Assembly (NCBI GenBank): GCA_045612545.1 | Contig: JAZKZH010000034.1 | Location: 1,556-65,555, forward strand | Direction: 5' to 3' | DNA length: 64,000 nt | Origin: Eubacteriales bacterium | GTDB lineage: Bacteria > Bacillota > Clostridia > Oscillospirales > CAG-382 | Part shown: positions 2,726 through 62,002 of the stretch, one piece after another | How positions within the stretch are numbered: position 1 is the first letter of the stretch | Layout: each line of letters starts with the position of its first letter | Notes under the pieces: model-generated | Database searches by the model: none | The model's input: only the letters and a program-made list of their open reading frames with translations | What the model was told of the DNA's origin: nothing | Position numbers and translations under genes: made by a program

Positions 2726-3073
2726 GTCACCCTGAGCGAAGCAGGCGTGGAATAATGTTGTACCTTAGGTTGCAATGAGAAAAGCCTGCGGAGTCGAAGT
2801 TTTGCTTTTTGAAATTGCCCATTGTCTTTGGATATGCAGTTCCTTTTACAGCAATTTCGAAAAGCAAAACCGCAAGGGGTCTCCTCAAAGTCTGATCTAC
2901 CCCTACATAGGCAAACTTACATCCTTTGTGATAAAACAGTTCTTTAGCCTCGGAAAAGTATATCAGACTCTCAGTAGATCCCGCCTATCGGCGGGTTTGC
3001 TCCATCCCTCGTCGCGTTGCGACGACTACTTCCGCAAAACTTCGACTCGCCCTTCGGGCTCCCTCAGGATGAC
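2726..3073. repeat. nested-palindrome composite element, copy E1 (348 bp)
   Basis: Termini are GTCACCCTGAG (2726) and CTCAGGATGAC (3063-3073). Inner pairs are GTCGAAGTTTTGC/GCAAAACTTCGAC and GCAAAAC/GTTTGC, with the core module at 2876-2982. An extra CTCAGGATGAC lies at 3121-3131. Confidence 0.8.
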
Positions 3074-3221
3074 ACGCAGACGCGGCCGCGTGCCACCGAC
3101 TTGCCCGCAGGGTTGGTATGCTCAGGATGACGGTTAGAGTGGGTTTTGGCTTATACACAGTTTTCTTTCGCCGACATTCCTAACTTCTCCAAACAACAAC
3201 GTAAAAGCGAGGTTGGATATT

Positions 3222-3518
3222 ATGGTCATTCACGAGTATTACGTTTACATCCTGACCAACAAGACCAATTCCGTTTTATACAGCGGTGTGACCAACAGCC
3301 TTTCCAATCGGTTGGCACAACACAAAGAAGGCTCTGCAACCCATTTTACCGCACGGTACAACACCCACAAATTGGTGTATTTTGAACCCTTTTCCGGAAT
3401 CGAAAACGCCATCTCCCGGGAAAAACAGCCCAAACGTTGGACCCGTGAGAAGAAAAACCTTTTAATCGAAGCAAAAAACCCAAATTGGGATGATCTGAGC
3501 AATCAGTTCCCCATTTGA
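3222..3518 (+). CDS. stand-alone GIY-YIG nuclease family protein (UPF0213/COG2827-like), copy 1
   Basis: YYVYILTNKTNSVLYSGVTN (GIY-YIG), ...RLAQHK... and REKQ.KRW motifs. 98 aa, with 79/98 residues identical to the copy at 6349-6645. Confidence 0.85.
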   Translation: MVIHEYYVYILTNKTNSVLYSGVTNSLSNRLAQHKEGSATHFTARYNTHKLVYFEPFSGIENAISREKQPKRWTREKKNLLIEAKNPNWDDLSNQFPI

Positions 3519-6292: not shown

Positions 6293-6348
6293 AGGTTGGG
6301 ATGAGTTACGTTGTCGCCCTACTACACTCATTTTTTGAAAGGGATTGT

Positions 6349-6645
6349 ATGGTCGTTCACGATTATTACGTTTACATACTGACCAACAAGACCAACAGCG
6401 TTTTATACATCGGTGTCACCAACAGCCTGTCCCACAGGCTGGCACAGCATAAAGAAAGCGGGGAAAATCACTTCTCCGCACGGTACAACACCCACAAATT
6501 GGTGTATTTTGAACCCTTTGCAGGGGTGGATAACGCCATCTCCCGAGAAAAGCAGTTAAAACGCTGGACACGGGAAAAGAAAAACCTTTTGATTCAATCC
6601 AAAAACCCAAATTGGGAGGATCTGGGCGGTCAGTTTCCGCTTTGA
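6349..6645 (+). CDS. stand-alone GIY-YIG nuclease family protein, copy 2
   Basis: Same length (98 aa) and motifs as 3222-3518. ATG 6349 lies 56 nt after the CTCAGAATGAC terminus. Confidence 0.85.
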   Translation: MVVHDYYVYILTNKTNSVLYIGVTNSLSHRLAQHKESGENHFSARYNTHKLVYFEPFAGVDNAISREKQLKRWTREKKNLLIQSKNPNWEDLGGQFPL

Positions 6646-6669
6646 TCTTTGTTCCCGAAAGGAAATTAC

Positions 6670-6972
6670 ATGATTACCACCAAACAAAGAGCGTATCTGC
6701 GCTCCATTGCCGCACAGCTTACCCCCATCATGCAGGTTGGCAAGAACGGCGTCACCGAAAACTTAGTAAAAACCCTTTCCGATTCCTTGGAAGCCCACGA
6801 GATCATCAAGCTCACCGTCCTGGAGGCTTGCCCCATGACCGCAAGAGAGGTGTCCGATGCCCTTTGCGTCGCCCTGTCCTGCGAGGCGGTGCAGACCATC
6901 GGCAGAAAGATCTCCCTGTACCGTCAGGCTTCCGAGAAGGAAAAGCGGAAGATCGTATTGCCCAGAGGCTAA
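6670..6972 (+). CDS. yhbY: YhbY/CRS1-type RNA-binding protein (ribosome assembly)
   Basis: TTKQRAYLRSIAAQLTPIMQVGKNGVTENL....HEIIKL is the YhbY (CRM domain) pattern. RBS gaaagga lies upstream. Confidence 0.8.
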   Translation: MITTKQRAYLRSIAAQLTPIMQVGKNGVTENLVKTLSDSLEAHEIIKLTVLEACPMTAREVSDALCVALSCEAVQTIGRKISLYRQASEKEKRKIVLPRG

Positions 6973-7013
6973 AATACCCGCCTCGGCGGGCTGCGAAAGG
7001 CATACAGACAACC

Positions 7014-7442
7014 ATGAAAATTTTGATCTTAAACGGCCCCAACATCAATATGCTGGGAATTCGCGAGCCGGAAATTTACGGCAAACAAAATTACAAAGCC
7101 CTGCTTTCCTTTATCGGAGAGGTCTGTGAGGGTCTGGGCGTGGAATACCAGTGCTACCAATCCAACCACGAGGGTGCCTTGGTAGACAAGATCCAGGAGG
7201 CTTGGGGAGTGTTTGACGCCATCGTGTTCAACCCCGCCGCCTATACCCACACCAGCGTGGCCATCCACGATGCTCTGTTGGCCGTGGCCATTCCCACCGC
7301 AGAGGTGCATTTGACGGATACCACCTCCCGGGAGGACTACCGCAAGGTGAATTTCATCACCCCCTGCTGTGAGAAAACCTTCCAAGGACACGGCTTTGAC
7401 AGCTACCGTATGGCAATCGAATATTTTGCCAAAAAGAGCTGA
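7014..7442 (+). CDS. aroQ: type II 3-dehydroquinate dehydratase
   Basis: ILILNGPNINMLGIREPEIYG....SNHEG..VD.I....FNPAAYTHTSVAI.DAL. The part of the ORF track upstream of 7014 overlaps yhbY and is not used. Confidence 0.9.
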   Translation: MKILILNGPNINMLGIREPEIYGKQNYKALLSFIGEVCEGLGVEYQCYQSNHEGALVDKIQEAWGVFDAIVFNPAAYTHTSVAIHDALLAVAIPTAEVHLTDTTSREDYRKVNFITPCCEKTFQGHGFDSYRMAIEYFAKKS

Positions 7443-7490: not shown

Positions 7491-7566
7491 GGGGCATTAG
7501 CGCAGTTGGGAGCGCACAACACTGGCAGTGTTGGGGTCAGGGGTTCAAGTCCCCTATGCTCCACCA
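7491..7566 (+). tRNA. tRNA-Ala (anticodon GGC), CCA encoded
   Basis: Hand-folded cloverleaf: acceptor stem GGGGCAT/ATGCTCC with the G3:U70 alanine identity pair, anticodon loop CTGGCAG, T-loop GGTTCAAGTCC, 76 nt. Confidence 0.9.
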
Positions 7567-12497: not shown

Positions 12498-12560
12498 TGG
12501 ATGGAAACCGTTACAAGGCGGGCGGATTCGTGAATCGCCCCTGCACTCTCGTAGCATAAC

Positions 12561-12582
12561 GGGACGCCGTGAACGTCGTCCC
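12561..12582. repeat. solitary REP-like hairpin
   Basis: GGGACGCCGTGAACGTCGTCCC belongs to the same family as the copies at 20681, 20809, 21421, 24288, 24400, 45473, 54951, 55101, 55390 and 55540. Confidence 0.7.
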
Positions 12583-16489: not shown

Positions 16490-16537
16490 ACTATATCTAA
16501 GCATCTAATTACGCCGTAGGTCGGAAGGAGTGTGTGC

Positions 16538-17863
16538 ATGGACCAGTTTGCAGAGCTGAAAAACATCATATTAGAGGAGCTGGGGAAGCAGTATGCCTCC
16601 ACCATCATCACCCTTTGGTTTGATAAAATGGAGATCACCGAGATCACCGATTCGGAGGTCACACTGTCCTTCCCCGCATCCCGCAAGCTGTTTGTGGAGG
16701 CCAATTACAGTGCCGTCCTCACCGAGACCTTTGCCTCTGTTTTGGGCGTTAAGGTGGACGTAAAGTTTATCTCCCCCGAAGAGGTCAAGGAGCAGGAAGC
16801 CCCCCAGCCGGAGCCCGAGAAGCAGAAGAACGCTTATCAGACCCGTTTCAATGCGGACTACACCTTTGAGACCTTCATCGTGGGCAAATCCAACCAGCTT
16901 GCCCATACCGCCGCCATGGCGGTGGCCAAGAACCCCTTCCATCTGAACAACCCGCTATACCTCTACGGCCCCTCCGGCTTGGGCAAGACCCATTTGCTCT
17001 ACGCCATTATGGCCAAGCTCCGTGAGGATCATCCCGAATATTCCATTCTCTACGTCACCGGCGAGGAATTCACCATCGATATGATCGAGTCCCTTGCCCA
17101 GCACAACCCCGCCGCTCTCCGCGAGAAGTACCGCAGTGTGGACGTGCTGTTGGTGGACGATATCCAGTTCATTTCCGGCAAGATCGGTGTGCAGGAGGAG
17201 TTCTTCCACACCTTCGAGACCTTGTTCCGCCAAAACAAGCAGCTGATCATCGCCTCCGACGTAGCGCCGGAACGGATCGACAACTTAGAAGACCGTCTCC
17301 GCGGCAGATTCTCCATGGGCTTGGTGGCAGACATTCAGCCCCCGGATCTGGAGCTTCGCACCGCTATCTTCCGCAGAAAAGCCCTGGATTTCGGCTTTGA
17401 CCTGGATTTCTCCGTGCTGAACTACCTGGCGGAGAACATCACCCGCAACATCCGTCAGATCGAGGGCGCTATCAAAAAGCTCCGCGCCCACTGCTTCCTG
17501 ACCGGTGATAAATGCACCGTGAAGATCGCAGAGCTGGTTCTGGGCGAGTTCTTAAAGACCAAGGCCTCCGCGGATACCATGTTCGAGAAGGTTCTGGAAT
17601 ACGCCTCCAAGAAGTACATGGTCTCCACCGAGGATATTCTGGGTAACAAGCGTACCGCCAACATCGTATCGGCAAGACACTTCGCCGTCTATATGGTGCG
17701 TAAGACCACTACTTACTCCCAGAAGCAGATCGCTGAGCTGTTTAAGCGCAAGGATCACACCACCATCATCAACTCCATCAACGTCATGGAGCAAAAGGTG
17801 GTCTCCGATCCCATCTTCGCCCGCGAAATGGCCCACACCATCGAGGAAATTTTGCAAGGGTAA
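16538..17863 (+). CDS. dnaA: chromosomal replication initiator protein DnaA
   Basis: Walker A (LYGPSGLGKTHL), LLVDDIQF, sensor regions and the C-terminal DNA-binding HTH (...ARHFAVYMVRK.T.YS...IAELF.RKDHTTI). ATG 16538 lies 7 nt after GGAGG; GTG 16532 is an alternative. Confidence 0.95.
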   Translation: MDQFAELKNIILEELGKQYASTIITLWFDKMEITEITDSEVTLSFPASRKLFVEANYSAVLTETFASVLGVKVDVKFISPEEVKEQEAPQPEPEKQKNAYQTRFNADYTFETFIVGKSNQLAHTAAMAVAKNPFHLNNPLYLYGPSGLGKTHLLYAIMAKLREDHPEYSILYVTGEEFTIDMIESLAQHNPAALREKYRSVDVLLVDDIQFISGKIGVQEEFFHTFETLFRQNKQLIIASDVAPERIDNLEDRLRGRFSMGLVADIQPPDLELRTAIFRRKALDFGFDLDFSVLNYLAENITRNIRQIEGAIKKLRAHCFLTGDKCTVKIAELVLGEFLKTKASADTMFEKVLEYASKKYMVSTEDILGNKRTANIVSARHFAVYMVRKTTTYSQKQIAELFKRKDHTTIINSINVMEQKVVSDPIFAREMAHTIEEILQG

Positions 17864-24287: not shown

Positions 24288-24429
24288 CCGGGACGCCGAG
24301 GGCGTCGTCCCCTACGGTCATGGACGAGTAGGGAAAGCAGCCGTTACCGATGCAAAAACTTGTTGCGTATACCCTTGTTCGCACAAAACAAGGCGCGTAT
24401 TCGTAGGGGACGACGCCCACGGCGTCCCG
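24288..24429. repeat. REP doublet (two inverted REP hairpins about 80 nt apart) in the gyrB-gyrA spacer
   Basis: CCGGGACGCCGAGGGCGTCGTCCCCTACGG (24288-24317) and TTCGTAGGGGACGACGCCCACGGCGTCCCG (24400-24429). Confidence 0.8.
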
Positions 24430-24543
24430 TTTGCGTGGAATCTTGCAACGAATTTTCGCTGTACTCCGTGCGGGAACTTGGGTTCGATTCCAATTGATTA
24501 TTGATTTACAGCATAGATCTCATAAAGACAAGGAGAAATTCCA

Positions 24544-54078: not shown

Positions 54079-54921
54079 TTATACCGTATATGTAGAATAA
54101 TTAAGCAATTTCTCAAAATAAGTGTAGGGGACGTGTTCCTTCCCCAGGGGAATATCCGGCTTCCGCGAGCCGTGGAAGTCGCTCCCGCCGGAGGGGAGCA
54201 GGTTGTACTTTTCGCAAATTGGGCGCACAAACTCCGCTTCTTCCTTGCTGTGTGCAGGGTGAAGCACCTCAACGGCCGCAAGACCGGCTTCCACAGCCAA
54301 GGGCAAGAATTCCTTCAGCTCTTCCCTGCTCAGATCCAGCAAGGGGTGCGCCAGCACGGGCACAGCACCAATGGACTTTAAAAAGGCGATGGCCTCCAAC
54401 GAAGGAATTCTTTTCACGGGAACGTAGTAGGGGCTTTCCTTGGCCAGCAGGGTGGCAAAGGCCTCTTTCACCGAGGAAACGTAGCCCTTTTCCGTCAGCT
54501 TTGCACCGATATGGGAGCGGTTGAACCTGCCCTTGGGGGTGAGACTTGCCACCTCTTCGAAGGTGATGTCATACCCGTCCTTTTGCAGGCGGGAAATCAG
54601 CTCGCGGTTGCTTTCCGCTTTCTTGTTTAGCAGTGCTTCCGTGTAGGCTTGTACCTCGGAGAGCCTTTCCTCAGGCAGGAACAGCCCCACAATGTGAAGC
54701 TCTGTTTCCCCGTAGTCGGTGGATAACTCCACCCCGGGGACGGTGCGGACAGAGCTTGTCTTCCCTGCTTGCAAAAAGGCGGGAAGTCCCTCTGCGGTGT
54801 TATGATCGCAGAGAGCAACGGCGGAAAGGCCGATACGCTCCGCTTCTTTTATGATCTCTTCGGGAGTGAAGGTTCCGTCGGAGAAAATTGAATGGGTGTG
54901 AAGATCACAGTAGGTTGACAT
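54079..54921 (-). CDS. PHP-domain metal-dependent phosphoesterase (TrpH/YciV-like)
   Basis: The N-terminus YCDLHTHSIFSDG is present, along with later His/Asp ligands (CDHNT, VLAHP, GGSDFHG). Confidence 0.8.
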   Translation of the reverse strand: MSTYCDLHTHSIFSDGTFTPEEIIKEAERIGLSAVALCDHNTAEGLPAFLQAGKTSSVRTVPGVELSTDYGETELHIVGLFLPEERLSEVQAYTEALLNKKAESNRELISRLQKDGYDITFEEVASLTPKGRFNRSHIGAKLTEKGYVSSVKEAFATLLAKESPYYVPVKRIPSLEAIAFLKSIGAVPVLAHPLLDLSREELKEFLPLAVEAGLAAVEVLHPAHSKEEAEFVRPICEKYNLLPSGGSDFHGSRKPDIPLGKEHVPYTYFEKLLNYSTYTV

Positions 54922-55236
54922 AATTCGTTTTTGTTGAGTGTGGATTTTTTGGGCCGCCGTGGACGTCGGCCCCTACGGACCCGAAATGGGGACGGCAGAA
55001 AGTACGGCATTTTCTCCCGCAAGCATTACGGTGAGAAAACGATTTGCGCCCATCTGATTACGTGGGAACACGGTACGATTTTGTGGACGATCTATGCGTA
55101 TTCGTAGGGGACGACGTCCACGGCGTCCCGCTTGAAAATCTAAGTATACTTAGGCTTTTTGTGAAAAATGCTCAAAATCCTCTGCCCGGCGGATCTTTAA
55201 TGCGGCAAGCAATTGTTTCGCGCGGACTCGTTTCAC

Positions 55237-55315
55237 GTGAAACATTTTCACGTGAAACGTTTTCACAGTGAAACATTTTCACAGTGAAACGTTTTCACAG
55301 TGAAACATTTTCTGC
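55237..55315. repeat. array 1: five tandem copies of GTGAAACRTTTTCAC(A)
   Basis: Copies start at 55237, 55252, 55268, 55284 and 55300. Position 8 alternates A,G,A,G,A. The array is preceded by the perfect palindrome GTTTCACGTGAAAC. Confidence 0.9.
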
Positions 55316-55676
55316 GTGATATAAACTCGGCGACGATCCTTGGACCACCCGTTTTTATTGCTCTTACTTCTTCGTTAAGTGGATTTTACGGGCCGCCGTG
55401 GGCGTCGGCCCCTACGGACCCGAAATGGGATTGTGGGAACCACGGCATTTTCTCCCGCAAGCATTACGGCGAGAAAACCGATTTGCGCCCATCTGATTAC
55501 GTGGGAACACGGTGCGATTTTGTGGACGCTATATGCGTATTCGTAGGGGACGACGTCCACGGCGGCCCGCTTGAAAATCTAAGTATACTTAAGCTTTTTT
55601 GTGAAAAATGCTCAAAATCCTCTGCCCCGCGGATCTTTAATGCGGCAAGCAATTGTTTCGCGCGGACTTGTTTCAC

Positions 55677-55752
55677 GTGAAACATTTTCACGTGAAACAT
55701 TTTCACAGTGAAACATTTTCACAGTGAAACATTTTCTTGTGAAACATTTTCG
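55677..55752. repeat. array 2: five tandem copies of GTGAAACATTTTCAC(A)
   Basis: Copies start at 55677, 55692, 55708, 55724 and 55739. The array is preceded by GTTTCACGTGAAAC. Confidence 0.9.
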
Positions 55753-55770: not shown

Positions 55771-56020
55771 GAACCTCATCCGTCGCTCGACAAGTCTCGC
55801 GCCACCTTCCCCAAAGGGGAAGGCTAGGCTCCCTTCGGGAGCGGGCAATGGTTTGCTATAATTCATCGCCGAGACTTAAGGCACGAACGATTGAAATCAT
55901 TTGTGCGCACGCCATCGGCGTGCCTCGCCTTCCCCACCCGGGGAAGGGGGACCACAACGAGACGGAATGTGCGGCGTCTGTTCGCTTGGTTCTCTCTCGT
56001 AGTGGTGGATGAGGTTCCTA
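55771..56020. repeat. inverted GAACCTCATCC repeats enclosing GC hairpins (module F pair)
   Basis: GAACCTCATCC at 55771 and GGATGAGGTTC near 56010. Internal hairpins: CCTTCCCCAAAGGGGAAGG, GGCTCCCTTCGGGAGC, GCACGCCATCGGCGTGC, CCTTCCCCACCCGGGGAAGG. Related copies lie at 24183-24240, 31269-31288 and 52321-52340. Confidence 0.65.
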
Positions 56021-56070: not shown

Positions 56071-57420
56071 TTACTTCTTCGTCAGACACACAACGGTTTC
56101 CACGTGCCCTGTTCTCGGGAACATATTATAGGGGGTTGCTTCCCCTATTTCGTAAGTATAGCTCAGTTTTTCACAATTTGCTGCTAAGGTTGCGGGGTTG
56201 CAGGAGATATAAACAATGCGTTTTGGGGCGATCTCCAGCAAGGTTTCGATGACCTCGTCGGAAAGGCCTTTTCTGGGTGGGTCAACCACAATTACATCGG
56301 GGTCGCCGAAGGCCTTTTTGCAGGCATCTACCCCCAAAGAAGCATCTCCGCAGACGAAAAGGGTGTCCTCTTCCCTTCTGCCGCCCAATTTTGCGTTGAT
56401 TTTGGCGTTTTCAATGGCTTCGGGAACGATTTCCACACCGCAAAGCTTTTGATTTTCCTTTACCATGGAAAGCCCGATGGTGCCGGCACCGCAGTATAGA
56501 TCCAGAAGAACGCCGTTTTCCGGAAGATCTGCCAGCTCAGCGGCTTTTTGATACAATGCCTCGGTGCATTCCGGGTTGACCTGATAAAACGCTGTTGGCG
56601 AGATCTGGAAGATTTTACCGCAGAGAGTATCTTGCAAAACCGATTCTCCTGCTAAATGCAGGGTTTCTTCGCCAAAAATCACGTTGTCACCCTTGGGATT
56701 TACGTTCAGTGCCACACCAACGACCTGAGGAAAGGTTTCTATCAGCTCTTCTGCCAATGCTTTTGCTTTGGAAAACGCCTTGGAGGCGGTGAAGCACACG
56801 AAAAACTCGCCTTTGCGGTTCTTACGCATGGCGATATGGCGGAGAATGCCCTTGCCGTTCTGCTCGTTCCACACGGGAATATGATGTTTCTCGGATTGTT
56901 TCACGTGAAACATTGCGATCTCTGAAAACTGATCCTCCTGCAGAGGGCATTTCTCATGCTCAACAATAGAATGGGTGTGTCGAGCATAGTATCCAAAGGT
57001 AGTATTTCCGTCCTTGTTGCGCCCAAGGGGGTAAACGACCTTATTGCGGTAATTTTCCATGGAAAAGGATACCGTATCCGCCACGGCAACGTCCAAGTGC
57101 CCGATTCTCTTGAAAGCGTTTTCCACTGTTTGCTTTTTGATCTGCAATTCTGCGGCAGGGGAGAGATGGCGGTAGACACAACCGCCGCATCGGTGGTAAA
57201 CGGGGCAATCCGCCTCTATACGCAGGGAAGAAGTGGAGACAAGCTCCTCCAGCCGCCCAACATAGTAATTCTTTGCGCATTTGATGATTTTTACAGTGGC
57301 AACGTCCCCGGGCGCTGTGAGAGGAACGAATACCACCTCGCCGGTTTCGGCACGTCCAACGCCGTTGCCATCGGGGTTGATATCGGTGATGGATAGAGTA
57401 ATGAGGTCATTTTTGTTCAT
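56071..57420 (-). CDS. rlmD: 23S rRNA (uracil-5-)-methyltransferase RlmD/RumA type (TRAM + Fe-S + SAM MTase)
   Basis: TRAM domain (ITDINPDGNGVGR...VFVPLTAPGDVATVKI), Cys cluster C...CGGC, LLDLYCGAGTIGL and RIVYISCNPATLA. Confidence 0.85.
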   Translation of the reverse strand: MNKNDLITLSITDINPDGNGVGRAETGEVVFVPLTAPGDVATVKIIKCAKNYYVGRLEELVSTSSLRIEADCPVYHRCGGCVYRHLSPAAELQIKKQTVENAFKRIGHLDVAVADTVSFSMENYRNKVVYPLGRNKDGNTTFGYYARHTHSIVEHEKCPLQEDQFSEIAMFHVKQSEKHHIPVWNEQNGKGILRHIAMRKNRKGEFFVCFTASKAFSKAKALAEELIETFPQVVGVALNVNPKGDNVIFGEETLHLAGESVLQDTLCGKIFQISPTAFYQVNPECTEALYQKAAELADLPENGVLLDLYCGAGTIGLSMVKENQKLCGVEIVPEAIENAKINAKLGGRREEDTLFVCGDASLGVDACKKAFGDPDVIVVDPPRKGLSDEVIETLLEIAPKRIVYISCNPATLAANCEKLSYTYEIGEATPYNMFPRTGHVETVVCLTKK

Positions 57421-58513
57421 TGGCGGGTTCCTCTTGGGTTACGATGGTTTCCGCAGCTTCTTCAGAGGGGAGAACATCTGTTTGGTTCGGGGATTCCTCC
57501 TCATTTCCTGCGGCAGGGGAGGGGATGGGTTCTTGATCGTCAAAAACAATGTCTCTTTTGCGCAGGCGGTAGTAGTCTGCCTGCTTGGTCAGTGCCTCCA
57601 AAAGAGGGGTCAGCAAGCCGCAGCAAAGCACGGCGTACAGCACACCGTCCATGCCCAGATAGTAGCGGAATAGGAAGGTCGCCACCGCCGCCAAAATACC
57701 GAAGAGCAGCTTGCCGCCCTTGGTTCTGGGGGTGATGGAAAGATCGTTCAGGGTGAGAGTCGCGCCCAGGGCTACACCGCCGCAAAGGAGATACATATAG
57801 CCGTATTCCACCATTTCCGTCTCCGCAGGGGAGAAGGCCATGGCAAGGGTTAACAGCGTGAGCAGGTAAGCGGTGGTGATATGCCATGTGGCCACCTTGC
57901 GGTAAAGCAGCCAGCCAAGGCCGAACAGCAGGCAGGCGATACCCACGGCACCCATGGCACCGGAGGCAAAGCCGTAGAATTGGGCAAAGGCACCATCCCC
58001 GTACATGGTGCCTCCCATAAGCACGTCAAAAGGGGTCTTCACTTGATAAGCGGAGACCAATTCGGGGTTTATTACCCATTCGAATGGGGAAAAGTAGGCA
58101 AATGGCTTGGTAAAGCGTGTCATTTCATATGGGTACATAAGTCCTAACGCCGCCGCCGCCAAAGCGGAGGGACATAGGATTCTGTGGCCGAACCACACGT
58201 ATAGCGCCCTTGCCACCGCTATGAAGCCGGAGGCGATCATAGGGTAGTAGAGAGGCACGGTGACGGGGAACCAAAGAGCTGCCAGCACACCGGTGAGGAA
58301 GGCAAAGGGGGAGCAGGATTCGCTCCAGCTTCTGCGCAGGATCAGCTTTTGAATGAGGAAATCCAGCACAAAGGAGCAACCGCCGCAGATCCCCGCCAGC
58401 ACAGCAGCGCGGCCGCCGTACAGAAACACTGCCCAAGCGGTGACGGGAAGCATGGCGATGAACAGATCAAACGCTAAGGCGTTTTTTGTTTTGGGAGAGG
58501 AAACGAACTTCAT
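57407..58513 (-). CDS. RnfD/NqrB-family membrane protein
   Basis: MKFVSSPKTKN... (compare the SSPH N-terminus of RnfD) and about 9 hydrophobic segments. The Glu/Pro-rich C-terminal tail overlaps the rlmD start by 14 nt. The ORF-track N-terminal extension is not used. Confidence 0.6.
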   Translation of the reverse strand: MKFVSSPKTKNALAFDLFIAMLPVTAWAVFLYGGRAAVLAGICGGCSFVLDFLIQKLILRRSWSESCSPFAFLTGVLAALWFPVTVPLYYPMIASGFIAVARALYVWFGHRILCPSALAAAALGLMYPYEMTRFTKPFAYFSPFEWVINPELVSAYQVKTPFDVLMGGTMYGDGAFAQFYGFASGAMGAVGIACLLFGLGWLLYRKVATWHITTAYLLTLLTLAMAFSPAETEMVEYGYMYLLCGGVALGATLTLNDLSITPRTKGGKLLFGILAAVATFLFRYYLGMDGVLYAVLCCGLLTPLLEALTKQADYYRLRKRDIVFDDQEPIPSPAAGNEEESPNQTDVLPSEEAAETIVTQEEPANEQK

Positions 58514-58535
58514 AAGAACAAATCCTTTCTGCCCG

Positions 58536-59774
58536 TTACTTGAGATTTTTGTGCCGCGCGATCTTCTCCCGCAGGGGAATGGCGGCAGGGCAGACGTATT
58601 CACAGCATCCGCAGCCGATGCAAACGGCGGCGAGGCGCTTTGCGGAAAGATAGCTTCTCTGGGTGAGGCTCTTGTAGGGCATAAGGCGCATGGGACAGCT
58701 TTCCGCACACCGTCCGCAGGAAATGCAGTGGGTGGAACCAACGTCCAAAGGCATGGAGGCAAATACTGCCTCGGCCTTGCCGTGGATAGCGCCCTCTGCC
58801 TGAGGGCCGCCCAAGGGAGAATTGACCATGGTGCGGTAAGCGCCGCCCTTGAATTCCGCCGCCTCCAACACCGTTTTCCAGGGGGTGCCTATGGGTAGGT
58901 CGATGACAGCATTTTTGCCGAAGCCCTCGCCGCAGGCGGTTACCGTGCGGGTGAGCTGGGGGAGGCCCGTGAGAAGGGAAACATACAGCTGTGCCAGGGT
59001 CTGTCCCTTTACAAACAGCACTCCTTCGGATTCGGCGGTGGTATCTTTTTTCAGATGGCGGACGTAAAGCGCCTCGTAGAGGGTTTCGTCCCGCATGGGG
59101 TATTTCACTTGAAATTCCGCCTGTACCAGCAGGGCGGGATCGTTGATCATGGTGGTGAAGGCTTCCTTCACCTTGGCTTTTTCCTTGTCAATGATCAAAA
59201 TGGTCTTGGAAGCTCCCAGCAGGTGCATCAAAACCTTGGCGCCGCCCAGAATTTCTCCCGGATGGCGGAGGGCGCTGCGGTATTCCGTAAAGGACCAGCC
59301 GGAATCATCGGTGGTATCCACCACCACACGGCGGATCTTGCCCACCAAGGGGGTGAGTCTGCGCCACAGCCAGTCACCGCTCCAAAGATCGTGGATGCCC
59401 AGGGTCTTGATAGAGCTTAAAAGCTCCTCCGAGGTCAGCTCCTCCAACCGTTTGCTTTCCGGCTCGCGGGCGGGGACGGGGGAGAGGTCTGCATCCTTTT
59501 TGTTGCGCTCCACGGAAAGGTAGTGCAAGCCGTTTTTTTCGAACACGCCGGTGACCACGCCGGGGATGGAGCTGTAAATGGGGGTGCCGTCGGCCAGCAG
59601 AGCCACTCTGCCACCCACGGGGATCTCCTCGTTTTCGCACACCGTGATGGTATATGCCTCCTCTGCGTCTCCCAAGGGCAACATGACCTGAGAAACGTTC
59701 TTCAGAATAAGGCTGTTTTTCAAAGCGTCGGTTCGAACGGGGAGGGAAACACCGCCCGTGAATGTCAAGACCAT
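58536..59774 (-). CDS. RnfC-like protein with two 4Fe-4S ferredoxin motifs
   Basis: The N-terminus FTGGVSLP resembles the RnfC barrel-sandwich domain. C-terminal CISCGRCAESCP and CIGCGCCEYVCP. The nucleotide-binding region looks degenerate (VVVDTTDDSGWSFTEYR where RnfC has GAECEPY). Confidence 0.6.
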   Translation of the reverse strand: MVLTFTGGVSLPVRTDALKNSLILKNVSQVMLPLGDAEEAYTITVCENEEIPVGGRVALLADGTPIYSSIPGVVTGVFEKNGLHYLSVERNKKDADLSPVPAREPESKRLEELTSEELLSSIKTLGIHDLWSGDWLWRRLTPLVGKIRRVVVDTTDDSGWSFTEYRSALRHPGEILGGAKVLMHLLGASKTILIIDKEKAKVKEAFTTMINDPALLVQAEFQVKYPMRDETLYEALYVRHLKKDTTAESEGVLFVKGQTLAQLYVSLLTGLPQLTRTVTACGEGFGKNAVIDLPIGTPWKTVLEAAEFKGGAYRTMVNSPLGGPQAEGAIHGKAEAVFASMPLDVGSTHCISCGRCAESCPMRLMPYKSLTQRSYLSAKRLAAVCIGCGCCEYVCPAAIPLREKIARHKNLK

Positions 59775-59880
59775 AAGCTCCTCCGAAAATACATACATGA
59801 ATTCATTATGATTATACCACAAAACGGAAAGATTTCAATAAGAAAATGTAAATAAAACCTTGTTCTGCAGGGGAAAACAC

Positions 59881-59909
59881 TTGCAAAAGGGTGAAAAATG
59901 TTTTATAAT
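59881..59909 (+). promoter_or_regulatory. sigma-A-type promoter
   Basis: TTGCAA (59881-59886), 17-nt spacer, TATAAT (59904-59909). This argues that the ORF start at 59898 is not used. Confidence 0.6.
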
Positions 59910-59951
59910 GTAAAATTGACGGGGTATCCCCCTGAAGAAGGAAGGGTTGTT

Positions 59952-60497
59952 ATGGACGAAAAAGCCATCCGCACACAAGCAAAAATCTTTATTTTATATA
60001 TTTTGGGCAACGTGGAGGAGCCGGTGGAGTTCACCGTGCTCAACGACATGATCCAGCAGGACGGGCTGGTGACCTATTTTGACTTTGCCGCTGCCTTCTC
60101 GGATTTGGTACTGCAAGAGCAGATCGCTGCCGTGGGCGAGGGTGAGGACGGGGAGGTTCTTTATACCGTGACCAAAGAGGGGCGGGACGTTCTGGATATG
60201 TACGGTCACGAGCTTCCCGCCGACGTACGGGACAGAGTGCTTCGCCACGCTCAGAGGGTGCTGGTTTCCAAGCGCCGCGGGGTGAAGTATCACAGCACCG
60301 TTGCCCCCACGGGGACGGGCTGGACGGTGACCTGCACCATCAGTGATCGGAACAAGACCTTGTTTTCCACCTCCGTGTACGCCGCTACCCATGAGTATGC
60401 GGAAAAGCTGCGGGAGACCTTTGAGGATCGTTCGGATATTATCTACCGCGGGGTAATGACCCTGTTCTCCGGGGACGTGAATTTTATTTTTGAATAA
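59952..60497 (+). CDS. DUF4364-like protein (PadR-like winged-helix N-terminus)
   Basis: AKIFILYILGNVEEPVEFTVLNDMIQQDGLVTYFDFAAAFSDLV resembles the Clostridial DUF4364 family. Assignment is from memory only. Confidence 0.4.
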   Translation: MDEKAIRTQAKIFILYILGNVEEPVEFTVLNDMIQQDGLVTYFDFAAAFSDLVLQEQIAAVGEGEDGEVLYTVTKEGRDVLDMYGHELPADVRDRVLRHAQRVLVSKRRGVKYHSTVAPTGTGWTVTCTISDRNKTLFSTSVYAATHEYAEKLRETFEDRSDIIYRGVMTLFSGDVNFIFE

Positions 60498-60590
60498 TCA
60501 AGTCGGTGCGTAGCTATGTTTGAAGGATTGCTTTATGAATCAAAACAGCTACGTTTACATCCTCTTTAACGATTTACAGGAGCCGTACGT

Positions 60591-61226
60591 ATGACACCTT
60601 ACGAAAGAATGCAAGAGGTTCTTGCCCGCTTGGAGGCGTATTACCCCGATTCTGCCTGCGCTTTGGAGGCGAAGGGGGATCCTTTCCGCCTTTTGGTGAT
60701 GGCGATCCTTTCTGCGCAATGCACGGATGCACGGGTGAATCTGGTTTCCGTGGGATTGTTTGAACGCTTTCCCACAGCCGCCGCCATGGCGGAGGGGGAG
60801 GTATGCGAGATCGAGGAGCTGATCCGCTCCTGCGGGCTGTACCGCAGTAAGGCGAAGAACCTTTCTTTGTGCGCAAAACGGCTGTGCGAGGTGTACGGCG
60901 GGGAAGTGCCTTCTGCCATGGAGGATCTCCTCACCCTGCCCGGGGTGGGCAGAAAGGTAGCTAACCTGATCCGCGGGGACGTTTTTGGGCTGGGAGGCAT
61001 TGTGGCAGACACCCATTGTATCCGCATCACCAACCTGTTGGGCTTTTGCAACACCGACGATCCCAAAAAGGTGGAGTTCACCCTTGATCCCTTGGTACCT
61101 AAGGAAAAGCAAAGCGATTTCTGCCACCGCTTGGTGCAGTACGGAAGAGATATTTGCATCGCCCGCCGCCCGCAATGCGGGGAATGCGTTTTGAAGGATA
61201 TTTGCAACTACGGAGAGACTATATGA
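60591..61226 (+). CDS. nth: endonuclease III
   Basis: The helix-hairpin-helix motif LPGVGRKVANLI and the C-terminal Fe-S cluster CIARRPQCGECVLKDIC are present. Confidence 0.9.
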   Translation: MTPYERMQEVLARLEAYYPDSACALEAKGDPFRLLVMAILSAQCTDARVNLVSVGLFERFPTAAAMAEGEVCEIEELIRSCGLYRSKAKNLSLCAKRLCEVYGGEVPSAMEDLLTLPGVGRKVANLIRGDVFGLGGIVADTHCIRITNLLGFCNTDDPKKVEFTLDPLVPKEKQSDFCHRLVQYGRDICIARRPQCGECVLKDICNYGETI

Positions 61227-62002
61227 TCGATACCAACATCCCACAACTGCAACGCTTGCTGTCCTCCACCCGCCGCGCGGTGGATGATTACGGCATGATC
61301 GCCGAGGGTGACCGCATTGCCGTGGGTATTTCCGGCGGAAAGGACAGCATGGCCTTGCTTGCCGCCTTGGCGGGACTGCAAAGGTTTTATCCAAAAAAGT
61401 TTGAGATCGTTCCCATCCACCTGCAGATGGGCTTCCCCGGCGGGGATGACAGCAACATCCGTGCGCTTTGCGAGGCGTTAAATCTGCCCCTGGTGGCGGT
61501 GAAAACCGATATTTACCAGGTGGTTTTTGAGATCCGCAAGGAAAAAAGCCCCTGCTCCCTTTGCGCCAACCTGCGGAGAGGGATTCTTTACAGCACTGCC
61601 AAGGAGCACGGTTGCCGTAAGATCGCCCTGGGGCATCATTTCGACGATGCGGTGGAGACCTTGCTGATGAATTTGTTCATCGAGGGGAACTTGGGGTGCT
61701 TTTCTCCCGTGACCTATCTCGACCGTATGGACGTGACCATGATCCGCCCCCTGCTGTACGCCAAGGAGAAGGAGCTGAAGTCCTTTGTCACCGCGGCGGG
61801 AATCACCTGCTCTCCCAAGTATTGCCCCGCGGACGGCAATACCAAGCGTGAGGAATGGAAGCAATTCCTGGCGGAGCTGGAGCGGAAGGATCCCGGTGTG
61901 AAGGACCGTGTCTTCGGCGCCATTGAGCGGGCGGAGCTGGATGGATTTTCCGTGCATAAACGAGGAAGAAAGCATGGCGGCGAGGATACCGCCACGCAGT
62001 GA
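61223..62002 (+). CDS. PP-loop ATPase, tRNA 2-thiocytidine synthetase (TtcA)-like
   Basis: IAVGISGGKDSMALL (SGGKDS PP-loop) and CSLCANLRRG. ATGA overlap with the nth stop. Confidence 0.75.
   Translation: MIDTNIPQLQRLLSSTRRAVDDYGMIAEGDRIAVGISGGKDSMALLAALAGLQRFYPKKFEIVPIHLQMGFPGGDDSNIRALCEALNLPLVAVKTDIYQVVFEIRKEKSPCSLCANLRRGILYSTAKEHGCRKIALGHHFDDAVETLLMNLFIEGNLGCFSPVTYLDRMDVTMIRPLLYAKEKELKSFVTAAGITCSPKYCPADGNTKREEWKQFLAELERKDPGVKDRVFGAIERAELDGFSVHKRGRKHGGEDTATQ

Follow-up and report, generated by a model that had tools for sequence, protein, structure and literature searches.

ParB recognizes its site, a 16-bp palindrome, through helix-turn-helix domains and, as a sliding clamp, spreads over the adjoining DNA; the resulting partition complex acts through ParA to position the origin region and also recruits SMC. 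In the chromosomal parS clusters described so far, the sites are separate and lie tens to thousands of base pairs apart. Direct repeats that load a partition protein are known from F sopC and R1 parC, the latter consisting of two sets of five. On binding parS, ParB dimers close as CTP-dependent clamps, slide off the site, and build the partition complex, as outlined in PMC8299390 and PMC7022226, and sites of the tGTTNCACGTGAAACa consensus type have been tabulated for many species (PMC7022226, Table 1). In addition to full sites, the half-parS heptamers GTTTCAC/GTTCCAC are bound by the Pseudomonas aeruginosa ParB and by some other ParBs, which occupy them without spreading (PMC7022226; PMC10419367). 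The binding of half-sites is species-dependent, and none has been reported for the ParB of Bacillus subtilis (PMC7022226).

Here, we describe a locus within a 64-kb stretch of bacterial DNA (the whole stretch analyzed, called the window below) that can be compared with each of these systems. Its palindrome is identical to the parS of the B. subtilis Spo0J/ParB system and, like the sites of that system, is origin-proximal, clustered, and conserved across relatives; one site lies inside a coding sequence in B. subtilis, as one does in rlmD of the window. The difference from chromosomal parS is that the sites in the window head arrays of abutting or overlapping 15/16-bp units, mostly with an extra base at the dyad. 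Every unit contains a perfect GTGAAAC, the half-parS heptamer in its GTTTCAC/GTGAAAC form, but the known heptamers are scattered singly over the genome whereas those in the window are phased at 15 to 16 bp beside full parS. The direct repeats in two sets of five resemble R1 parC, whereas the repeat sequence, the family of the binding protein, the period, and the replicon differ from both F sopC and R1 parC, and the doubling in the window reflects a recent segmental duplication. We regard parS as the known element of the locus and, as its apparent novelty, a direct, phased array of parS-derived units, mostly of a one-base-longer (+1) type, within one clade.

Results

Two Tandem Arrays of parS-Derived Units

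The window contains two arrays of approximately five units each, at 55237–55312 and 55677–55751, with a unit length of 15 or 16 bp and a copy number far above chance. Tandem Repeats Finder delimited array 1 as 55231–55312 (period 16, 5.2 copies, 92% matches) and array 2 as 55671–55751 (period 15/31, 5.3 copies). Allowing for at most two mismatches, GTGAAACRTTTTCAC occurred 10 times in the 64-kb window, every time inside the two arrays; shuffled sequences gave an expectation of 0.33, and a count of 10 was reached in none of 100 shuffles. Ahead of either array stands a perfect palindrome, GTTTCACGTGAAAC (55230 and 55670), and the final one or two units of each array have degenerate 3′ ends.

Array 1: 55237..55312, plus strand; five GTGAAACRTTTTCAC(A) units, with position 8 reading A/G/A/G/A
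Array 1 unit starts: 55237, 55252, 55268, 55284, 55300; steps of 15, 16, 16, and 16 bp
Array 2: 55677..55751, plus strand; five units, with A at position 8 throughout and the final two units degenerate
Array 2 unit starts: 55677, 55692, 55708, 55724, 55739; steps of 15, 16, 16, and 15 bp

The array unit GTGAAACRTTTTCACA is a derivative of parS that combines a perfect half-site, GTGAAAC, with an imperfect inverse half, TTTTCAC. Across both arrays, there are ten perfect GTGAAAC heptamers, all in a single orientation. The junctions of the 15-bp units form weak parS sites with canonical spacing, and the junctions of the 16-bp units contain one additional central base (CACAGTG), creating the +1 site TTTTCACAGTGAAAC. 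Read in the sense of rlmD, the arrays take the form (ATGTTTCAC[T]GTGAAA)n and are followed by the full site ATGTTTCACGTGAAACAA. Folded as single-stranded DNA, they reach −26.6 and −24.0 kcal/mol (z = −6.5 and −5.3 in comparison with shuffled sequences). We found no copy of the array unit elsewhere in the 64-kb window, that is, none of the dispersal typical of REP, BIME, or MITE elements.

An earlier note on this DNA had described two five-unit arrays, a perfect palindrome ahead of each, and an A/G alternation at position 8 of array 1, and all of these are real. The 16-bp period that it proposed holds for most steps but not uniformly, as steps of 15 and 16 bp are mixed. Its view that the repeats are not CRISPR-like agrees with our finding of head-to-tail units, with no unique spacers of similar length between them, and the half-site that it singled out, GTGAAA/TTTCAC, corresponds to the known half-parS heptamer GTGAAAC/GTTTCAC. 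The note had recognized no named repeat; here it was mistaken, the palindrome being a match to consensus parS.

parS Sites at the Array Locus

Judged by its sequence, the palindrome at the head of the arrays is TGTTTCACGTGAAACA, the consensus chromosomal parS and predicted loading site of ParB/Spo0J. Allowing for at most three mismatches, we found five parS matches in the window against 0.18 expected, all of them at the array locus. Three strong sites (55229, 55669, and 56897) fall within 1.7 kb. The full, weak, and decayed sites are listed below, unstranded.

parS, perfect (TGTTTCACGTGAAACA): 55669..55684; no mismatches to the consensus; heads array 2
parS, one mismatch at the outermost position (CGTTTCACGTGAAACA): 55229..55244; heads array 1
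parS, perfect, in the rlmD coding sequence: 56897..56912; minus-strand codons for MFHVKQ
Weak parS at the 15-bp junction of array 2 (ATTTTCACGTGAAACA): 55684..55699; two mismatches, at outer positions 1 and 2
Weak parS at the 15-bp junction of array 1 (ATTTTCACGTGAAACG): 55244..55259; three mismatches, at outer positions
Decayed further half-site (GTTTCGCGCGGACT): 55655..55668; second copy at 55215–55228

The site at 55229 is a duplicate of the site at 55669, inside a tandem unit of ∼440 bp. The orthologue of the decayed half-site GTTTCGCGCGGACT reads GTTTCACGTGGACT in three relatives (L010, L015, and L026). A 19-mer common to the array flank and rlmD is, on the same reading of the palindrome, two putative parS sites. 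We also considered a pseudogene origin, with the 440-bp unit or the array as a decayed rlmD, second methyltransferase, or PHP gene, and rejected it using tblastn and sensitive blastn: the only matches were one of ∼33 nt centered at parS and a 12-nt remnant of the rlmD end.

A 30-bp palindrome, GTGAAAATGTTTCACGTGAAACATTTTCAC, is common to distant phyla. We considered it as an extended ParB site and set this aside: long perfect palindromes whose outer arms are arbitrary surround many intergenic parS, and the few cases are therefore compatible with chance. In L001, L005, L006, L008, and L013, which represent distant phyla, many intergenic parS lie inside perfect palindromes of up to ∼40 bp, and the outer arms of these differ between sites, as though a hairpin-templated process had symmetrized the flanks.

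Genomic Context

The arrays are located in a 1149-bp gap between a PHP-domain gene (54079–54921, minus strand) and an rlmD-like methyltransferase gene (56071–57420, minus strand). The replication genes of the window are the following:

dnaA: 16532..17863, plus strand; assigned by Pfam and followed by dnaN, recF, gyrB, and gyrA, up to 27057

The cumulative GC skew has its minimum at ∼16–20 kb of the window. Together with the gene order dnaA-dnaN-recF-gyrB-gyrA, this places the parS cluster ∼38–40 kb from the origin, in the usual territory of parS. Neither a motif search nor tblastn with the ParA and ParB of L004, an unrelated Firmicute described below, revealed a ParA or ParB gene in the 64-kb window or in the 6- to 21-kb loci of the relatives. 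The single Rfam match in the window was a tRNA at 7491, and the spacer contained no known RNA family; a scan for promoters and terminators returned weak consensus matches only, at the level of the shuffled background. We found no rep, par, integrase, or transposase genes in the spacer, no match to the array in 72,556 plasmids, and no array in viral contigs.

In comparison with two more distant relatives, L023 and L024, the gene block around gyrA is split in the window (6301–7442 and 56071–62002). In these relatives, DHquinase-YhbY-PP-loop-EndoIII-DUF4364 / RnfC-RnfD-rlmD come directly after gyrA, and rlmD shares the strand of gyrA; the window has rlmD ∼29 kb away from gyrA, on the opposite strand, and DHquinase/YhbY on the other side of dnaA. 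The split of the block from DHquinase to rlmD indicates a rearrangement around the origin. Between array 2 and the rlmD stop, the window contains a hairpin cassette (55771–56020) bounded by inverted GGAACCTCATCC motifs. The cassette is kept in L026, and contigs of the metatranscriptome run X9 cover it at a depth of 10 to 20.

A Segmental Duplication

There are two arrays because one segment of ∼440 bp was duplicated in tandem, and the arrays are the tails of its copies and not independent of each other.

Tandem segment, copy 1: 54940..55312, plus strand; ends with parS and array 1
Tandem segment, copy 2: 55379..55751, plus strand; 93% identical to copy 1
Duplication junction, 66 bp: 55313..55378, minus strand; a decayed REP hairpin and 12 nt left over from the 3′ end of rlmD (ACGAAGAAGTAA)

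The order within the segment is a 27-nt inverted repeat (REP-like) around 125 nt, a conserved TAAGTATACTTA palindrome, parS, and the array. The remnant ACGAAGAAGTAA matches the last rlmD codons and the stop, and the 55313–55378 junction can be aligned with the sequences next to the array in L010, L015, L020, and L012, namely the REP hairpin and the GCCGAGTAT flank. The presence of a REP remnant and an rlmD-end remnant after array 1 indicates that both arrays derive from one segmental duplication. The duplicated segment evidently extended from the 3′ end of rlmD, across the array and parS, to the REP-bearing unit, and the arrays would have diverged slightly since.

The inverted repeat enclosing the 125 nt, 27 to 28 nt in length (GGGCCGCCGTGGACGTCGGCCCCTACG), is found at 54951–54977, 55103–55129, 55389–55416, and 55542–55569. 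Its arms are part of a REP-like family that is dispersed, with further members at 12560–12582 and 24289–24430. The whole 440-bp segment is 82–93% identical to the copies in L010 and L012, whereas the flanking genes show an identity of only ∼50% at four-fold degenerate sites. Such identity above the four-fold background suggests that the repeat family is active or under selection, or that the segment forms a structured RNA. The start of the PHP gene in the window (54899–54921) reads ATGTCAACCTACTGTGAT (MSTYCD); in L010 (3720–3745) and L012 (5600–5625), the motif ATGTCAACCTAT marks the edge of the repeat unit, and the PHP gene, which starts with MKHYCD, lies far away. The start-codon region of the window PHP gene thus looks like the product of a deletion between repeats.

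Conserved parS and Variable Arrays among Relatives

We collected relatives using a pattern scan of species-representative genomes and contigs encoding close RlmD homologues. The syntenic locus, consisting of RnfC/D-like genes, rlmD, the spacer, and the PHP gene, was found in metagenome-assembled genomes (MAGs) of uncultured gut Clostridia/Oscillospiraceae, the RlmD of which is 62–88% identical to the window protein. The parS embedded in rlmD matches perfectly in 11 relatives and with a single mismatch in two others (L020 and L025), that of L025 converting TTT to TTC at the single degenerate (N) position of the consensus. Among the matches listed, 36 of the 120 RlmD homologues have the MFHVK(Q) peptide, including nearly all those at least 61% identical. 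The four-fold degenerate sites of rlmD are only 47–55% identical between the window and the nearest relatives, and the retention of parS over this background points to selection on the DNA sequence itself. The conservation of the rlmD site implies a cognate ParB in the clade and is the best indirect evidence for it; the centromere appears to be anchored in a housekeeping gene, rlmD, across a large Oscillospiraceae-like clade.

The intergenic parS at the position of 55669 has a perfect or one-mismatch orthologue in every syntenic relative, and wherever a relative has an array, it is positioned on the rlmD side of this site. The numbers of units ahead of parS, given below, are our own readings of the aligned sequences.

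Window: approximately five units in either array
L010 and L015: three units and one degenerate
L020: two units and one degenerate
L027: three units, with steps of 15, 16, and 15
L012 and L026: two units
L019: two units, one of them decayed
L021: zero units, a lone parS; the closest relative by RlmD identity (88%)
L023, L024, and L025: zero units, single sites only; RlmD 62–68% identical

In a tree of RlmD, the array-bearing genomes all belong to one clade of seven with a support of 98/99, the internal order of the clade being without resolution. The most degenerate units are those farthest from parS, and the central T has been gained or lost between orthologous units. Three variants of the locus were seen in gut metagenome contigs: one with array 2 shorter by one 15-bp unit, one (X1) with a single 440-bp segment in which 54932 is joined to 55379, and one with a spacer of ∼290 bp. 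The differences in copy number among the relatives and the metagenome contigs are a signature of slippage. The window, L012, and L020 have in common well-preserved +1 units and a T-C-T alternation at the variable position. As these are shared by lineages near neutral saturation, the units do not seem to drift freely; the preserved +1 units and their alternation would be hard to explain as pure slippage debris and may have a role more specific than an accessory one.

In several relatives, a conserved 215-aa open reading frame (ORF) with no Pfam family starts 20 to 30 nt from the intergenic parS:

215-aa ORF in L015: 8086–8733
215-aa ORF in L019: 7575–8222
215-aa ORF in L027: 4676–5323
215-aa ORF in L010: ∼2814–3420

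The window lacks the ORF and retains no more than the flank downstream of it (GCGGCAAGCAA). A Pfam search of the small ORFs in the relatives' spacers found no family.

Tandem parS in Unrelated Bacteria

In L004, a MAG of an unrelated Firmicute, the rsmG-parA spacer of the gene cluster mnmG-rsmG-parA-parB-serS is filled by a 15-bp unit, GTGAAACATTTTCAC. The array comprises nine parS-like sites at 2740–3020, organized as 49-bp super-repeats in the parAB promoter region. Scanning metagenomes for arrays of 2.5 or more units gave a single match, the soil contig L014, in which three perfect parS with a 15-bp spacing lie between rsmG and parA. Tomitella (L011) has three parS with a spacing of 15 bp, and in Adlercreutzia (L006), a 2.5-kb stretch contains 13 perfect parS. 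Taken together, the sites in these four indicate that overlapping head-to-tail parS are a recurrent natural arrangement; our literature search for natural head-to-tail parS arrays found no explicit description. The tandem parS of L004, L014, and L011 share with the window the 15-bp phasing of overlapping sites, and the GTGAAACATTTTCAC unit of L004 is identical. They differ in having the canonical CACGTG center and, in L004 and L014, in being placed in the rsmG-parA spacer, whereas the window arrays are mostly of the +1 type (16 bp) and located away from parAB.

Discussion

The observations that characterize the locus are its sequence identity to parS, the origin-proximal position, the conservation that includes synonymous sites, the variation in copy number, and the GTGAAACATTTTCAC unit found beside parAB. 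From the sequence, we infer ParB binding at the locus and any contribution that the extra units may make. We are confident that the sites are parS and that the canonical ones load ParB. It is also likely, with somewhat less assurance, that the locus is the parS centromere cluster of the chromosome, or a part of it, with a parS-derived array amplified by slippage and the extra units accessory or dispensable. Given parS identity and loading, the chances are even that the extra units add some ParB binding; that they are inert slippage products is plausible, short of an even chance, and a small chance is left for something else than these readings.

Under the proposed mechanism, the three strong sites would load ParB, and the 15-bp junction sites, with mismatches at the outer positions only, would act as weak loading sites. 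At the 16-bp junctions, the extra base at the dyad center would leave the half-sites out of register for a ParB dimer, such that they offer half-parS heptamers only. The array units probably arose through replication slippage between repeated half-sites and would then have been doubled by the ∼440-bp tandem duplication. At most, the extra units would provide low-affinity ParB binding of the half-parS type and increase the local concentration of ParB; they are probably accessory or dispensable and not an essential part of the centromere. A ParB role of the +1 units is argued against by the CACAGTG center at most junctions, which should misalign the half-sites for the dimer. The earlier note had proposed a protein-loading platform, similar to iterons or operators. 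The loading platform fits well with a palindrome that would be parS, the site of CTP-dependent clamp loading of ParB/Spo0J, but the iteron or operator analogy is only loose because the locus is chromosomal and origin-proximal, with no rep gene or plasmid match.

The extra units may have a still simpler explanation. If parS is functional and the units are by-products of slippage or of hairpin-promoted misalignment, protein-free and neutral, their copy number would drift, and the syntenic relatives indeed have from zero to five of them, with the array absent from L021 (88% RlmD identity) and partly decayed in L019 and parS intact. The degeneracy is greatest in the units farthest from parS, the central base comes and goes between orthologous units, metagenome contigs have one unit fewer or a shorter spacer, and the +1 center breaks the canonical dyad spacing. 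This explanation is a possibility that we hold tentatively: three sublineages with four-fold sites only 47–55% identical still have preserved units and the T-C-T pattern, whereas truly neutral 16-mers would be expected to have decayed past recognition, and homogenization by slippage could mimic conservation yet would not keep the alternating pattern. The earlier note had suggested looking for copy-number polymorphism, which is present among both relatives and metagenome contigs, and had considered that an array varying freely in relatives would speak against a functional element; the units do vary, from zero to five in the relatives and metagenome contigs, but parS itself is invariant. A different interpretation of the preserved units, which we find rather unlikely, is that of a compound centromere in one gut Oscillospiraceae-like Clostridia clade, where the one-sided array, on the rlmD side, has been selected as a ParB antenna or barrier. 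As an antenna, the half-parS or +1 pseudo-parS units would capture open ParB dimers beside the loading site; as a barrier, the loading-incompetent units would bias the departure of ParB clamps (and SMC) from parS toward one direction.

Readings that do without ParB fare less well. In L010, L015, L019, and L027, the start of the 215-aa ORF is 20 to 30 nt away from the array, on the parS side, array 2 overlaps with a weak match of the sigma-70 type, and tandem palindromes are common for ParB-independent regulators, all of which could suit an operator of another dimeric transcription factor, controlling the PHP gene or the relatives' ORF. The half-sites, however, are exactly those of parS, and the largest arrays are found in the window genome, which lost the ORF; the locus has no linked DNA-binding gene, the small spacer ORFs have no Pfam family, and the GTGAAACATTTTCAC unit upstream of parAB in L004 argues for ParB autoregulation or loading and not for another factor, making the operator improbable. 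We give even less credence to the array acting through DNA or RNA structure, as a cruciform, a slipped strand, or a hairpin in the rlmD 3′ UTR serving as a terminator or stabilizer. The structure-forming element of the earlier note survives as folding potential, with folds far stabler than shuffled sequences (z = −6.5 and −5.3), arrays downstream of rlmD, and a metatranscriptome run with contigs over array 2, but nothing indicates structure as the function. Strong folding is an automatic consequence of tandem palindromic binding sites, and any such array would fold as stably; the hairpins have no following T-run, the terminator scan makes no call, parS is kept in relatives with absent or decayed arrays, and the contigs of the RNA run are of low depth and may contain DNA. 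Hardly credible, finally, are iterons or a centromere of an integrated plasmid-like or mobile element, in the manner of R1 parC and F sopC. The direct repeats in two sets of five bear a superficial likeness to parC, and the spacer, which contains dispersed REP-like repeats, is a hot spot of rearrangement, but the locus has a chromosomal-origin context and shows the RnfC/D-like-rlmD-spacer-PHP synteny in all relatives, the spacer is devoid of rep, par, integrase, and transposase genes, the plasmid and viral sets gave no match, and the array unit is found nowhere else in the window.

Returning to the reading as a parS cluster with a slippage-amplified array, its first value is in annotation: a repeat of anonymous appearance would be a chromosome centromere and, in an uncultured lineage of gut Clostridia, would mark the origin domain. 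Natural parS arrays with 15- to 16-bp phasing recur in unrelated bacteria, and this lineage has kept its +1 pseudo-sites while its neutral sites diverged nearly to saturation. Should ParB bind the units, they would provide a natural test of the half-site geometry that is tolerated for binding versus clamp loading, and of whether clustered half-sites feed the partition complex.
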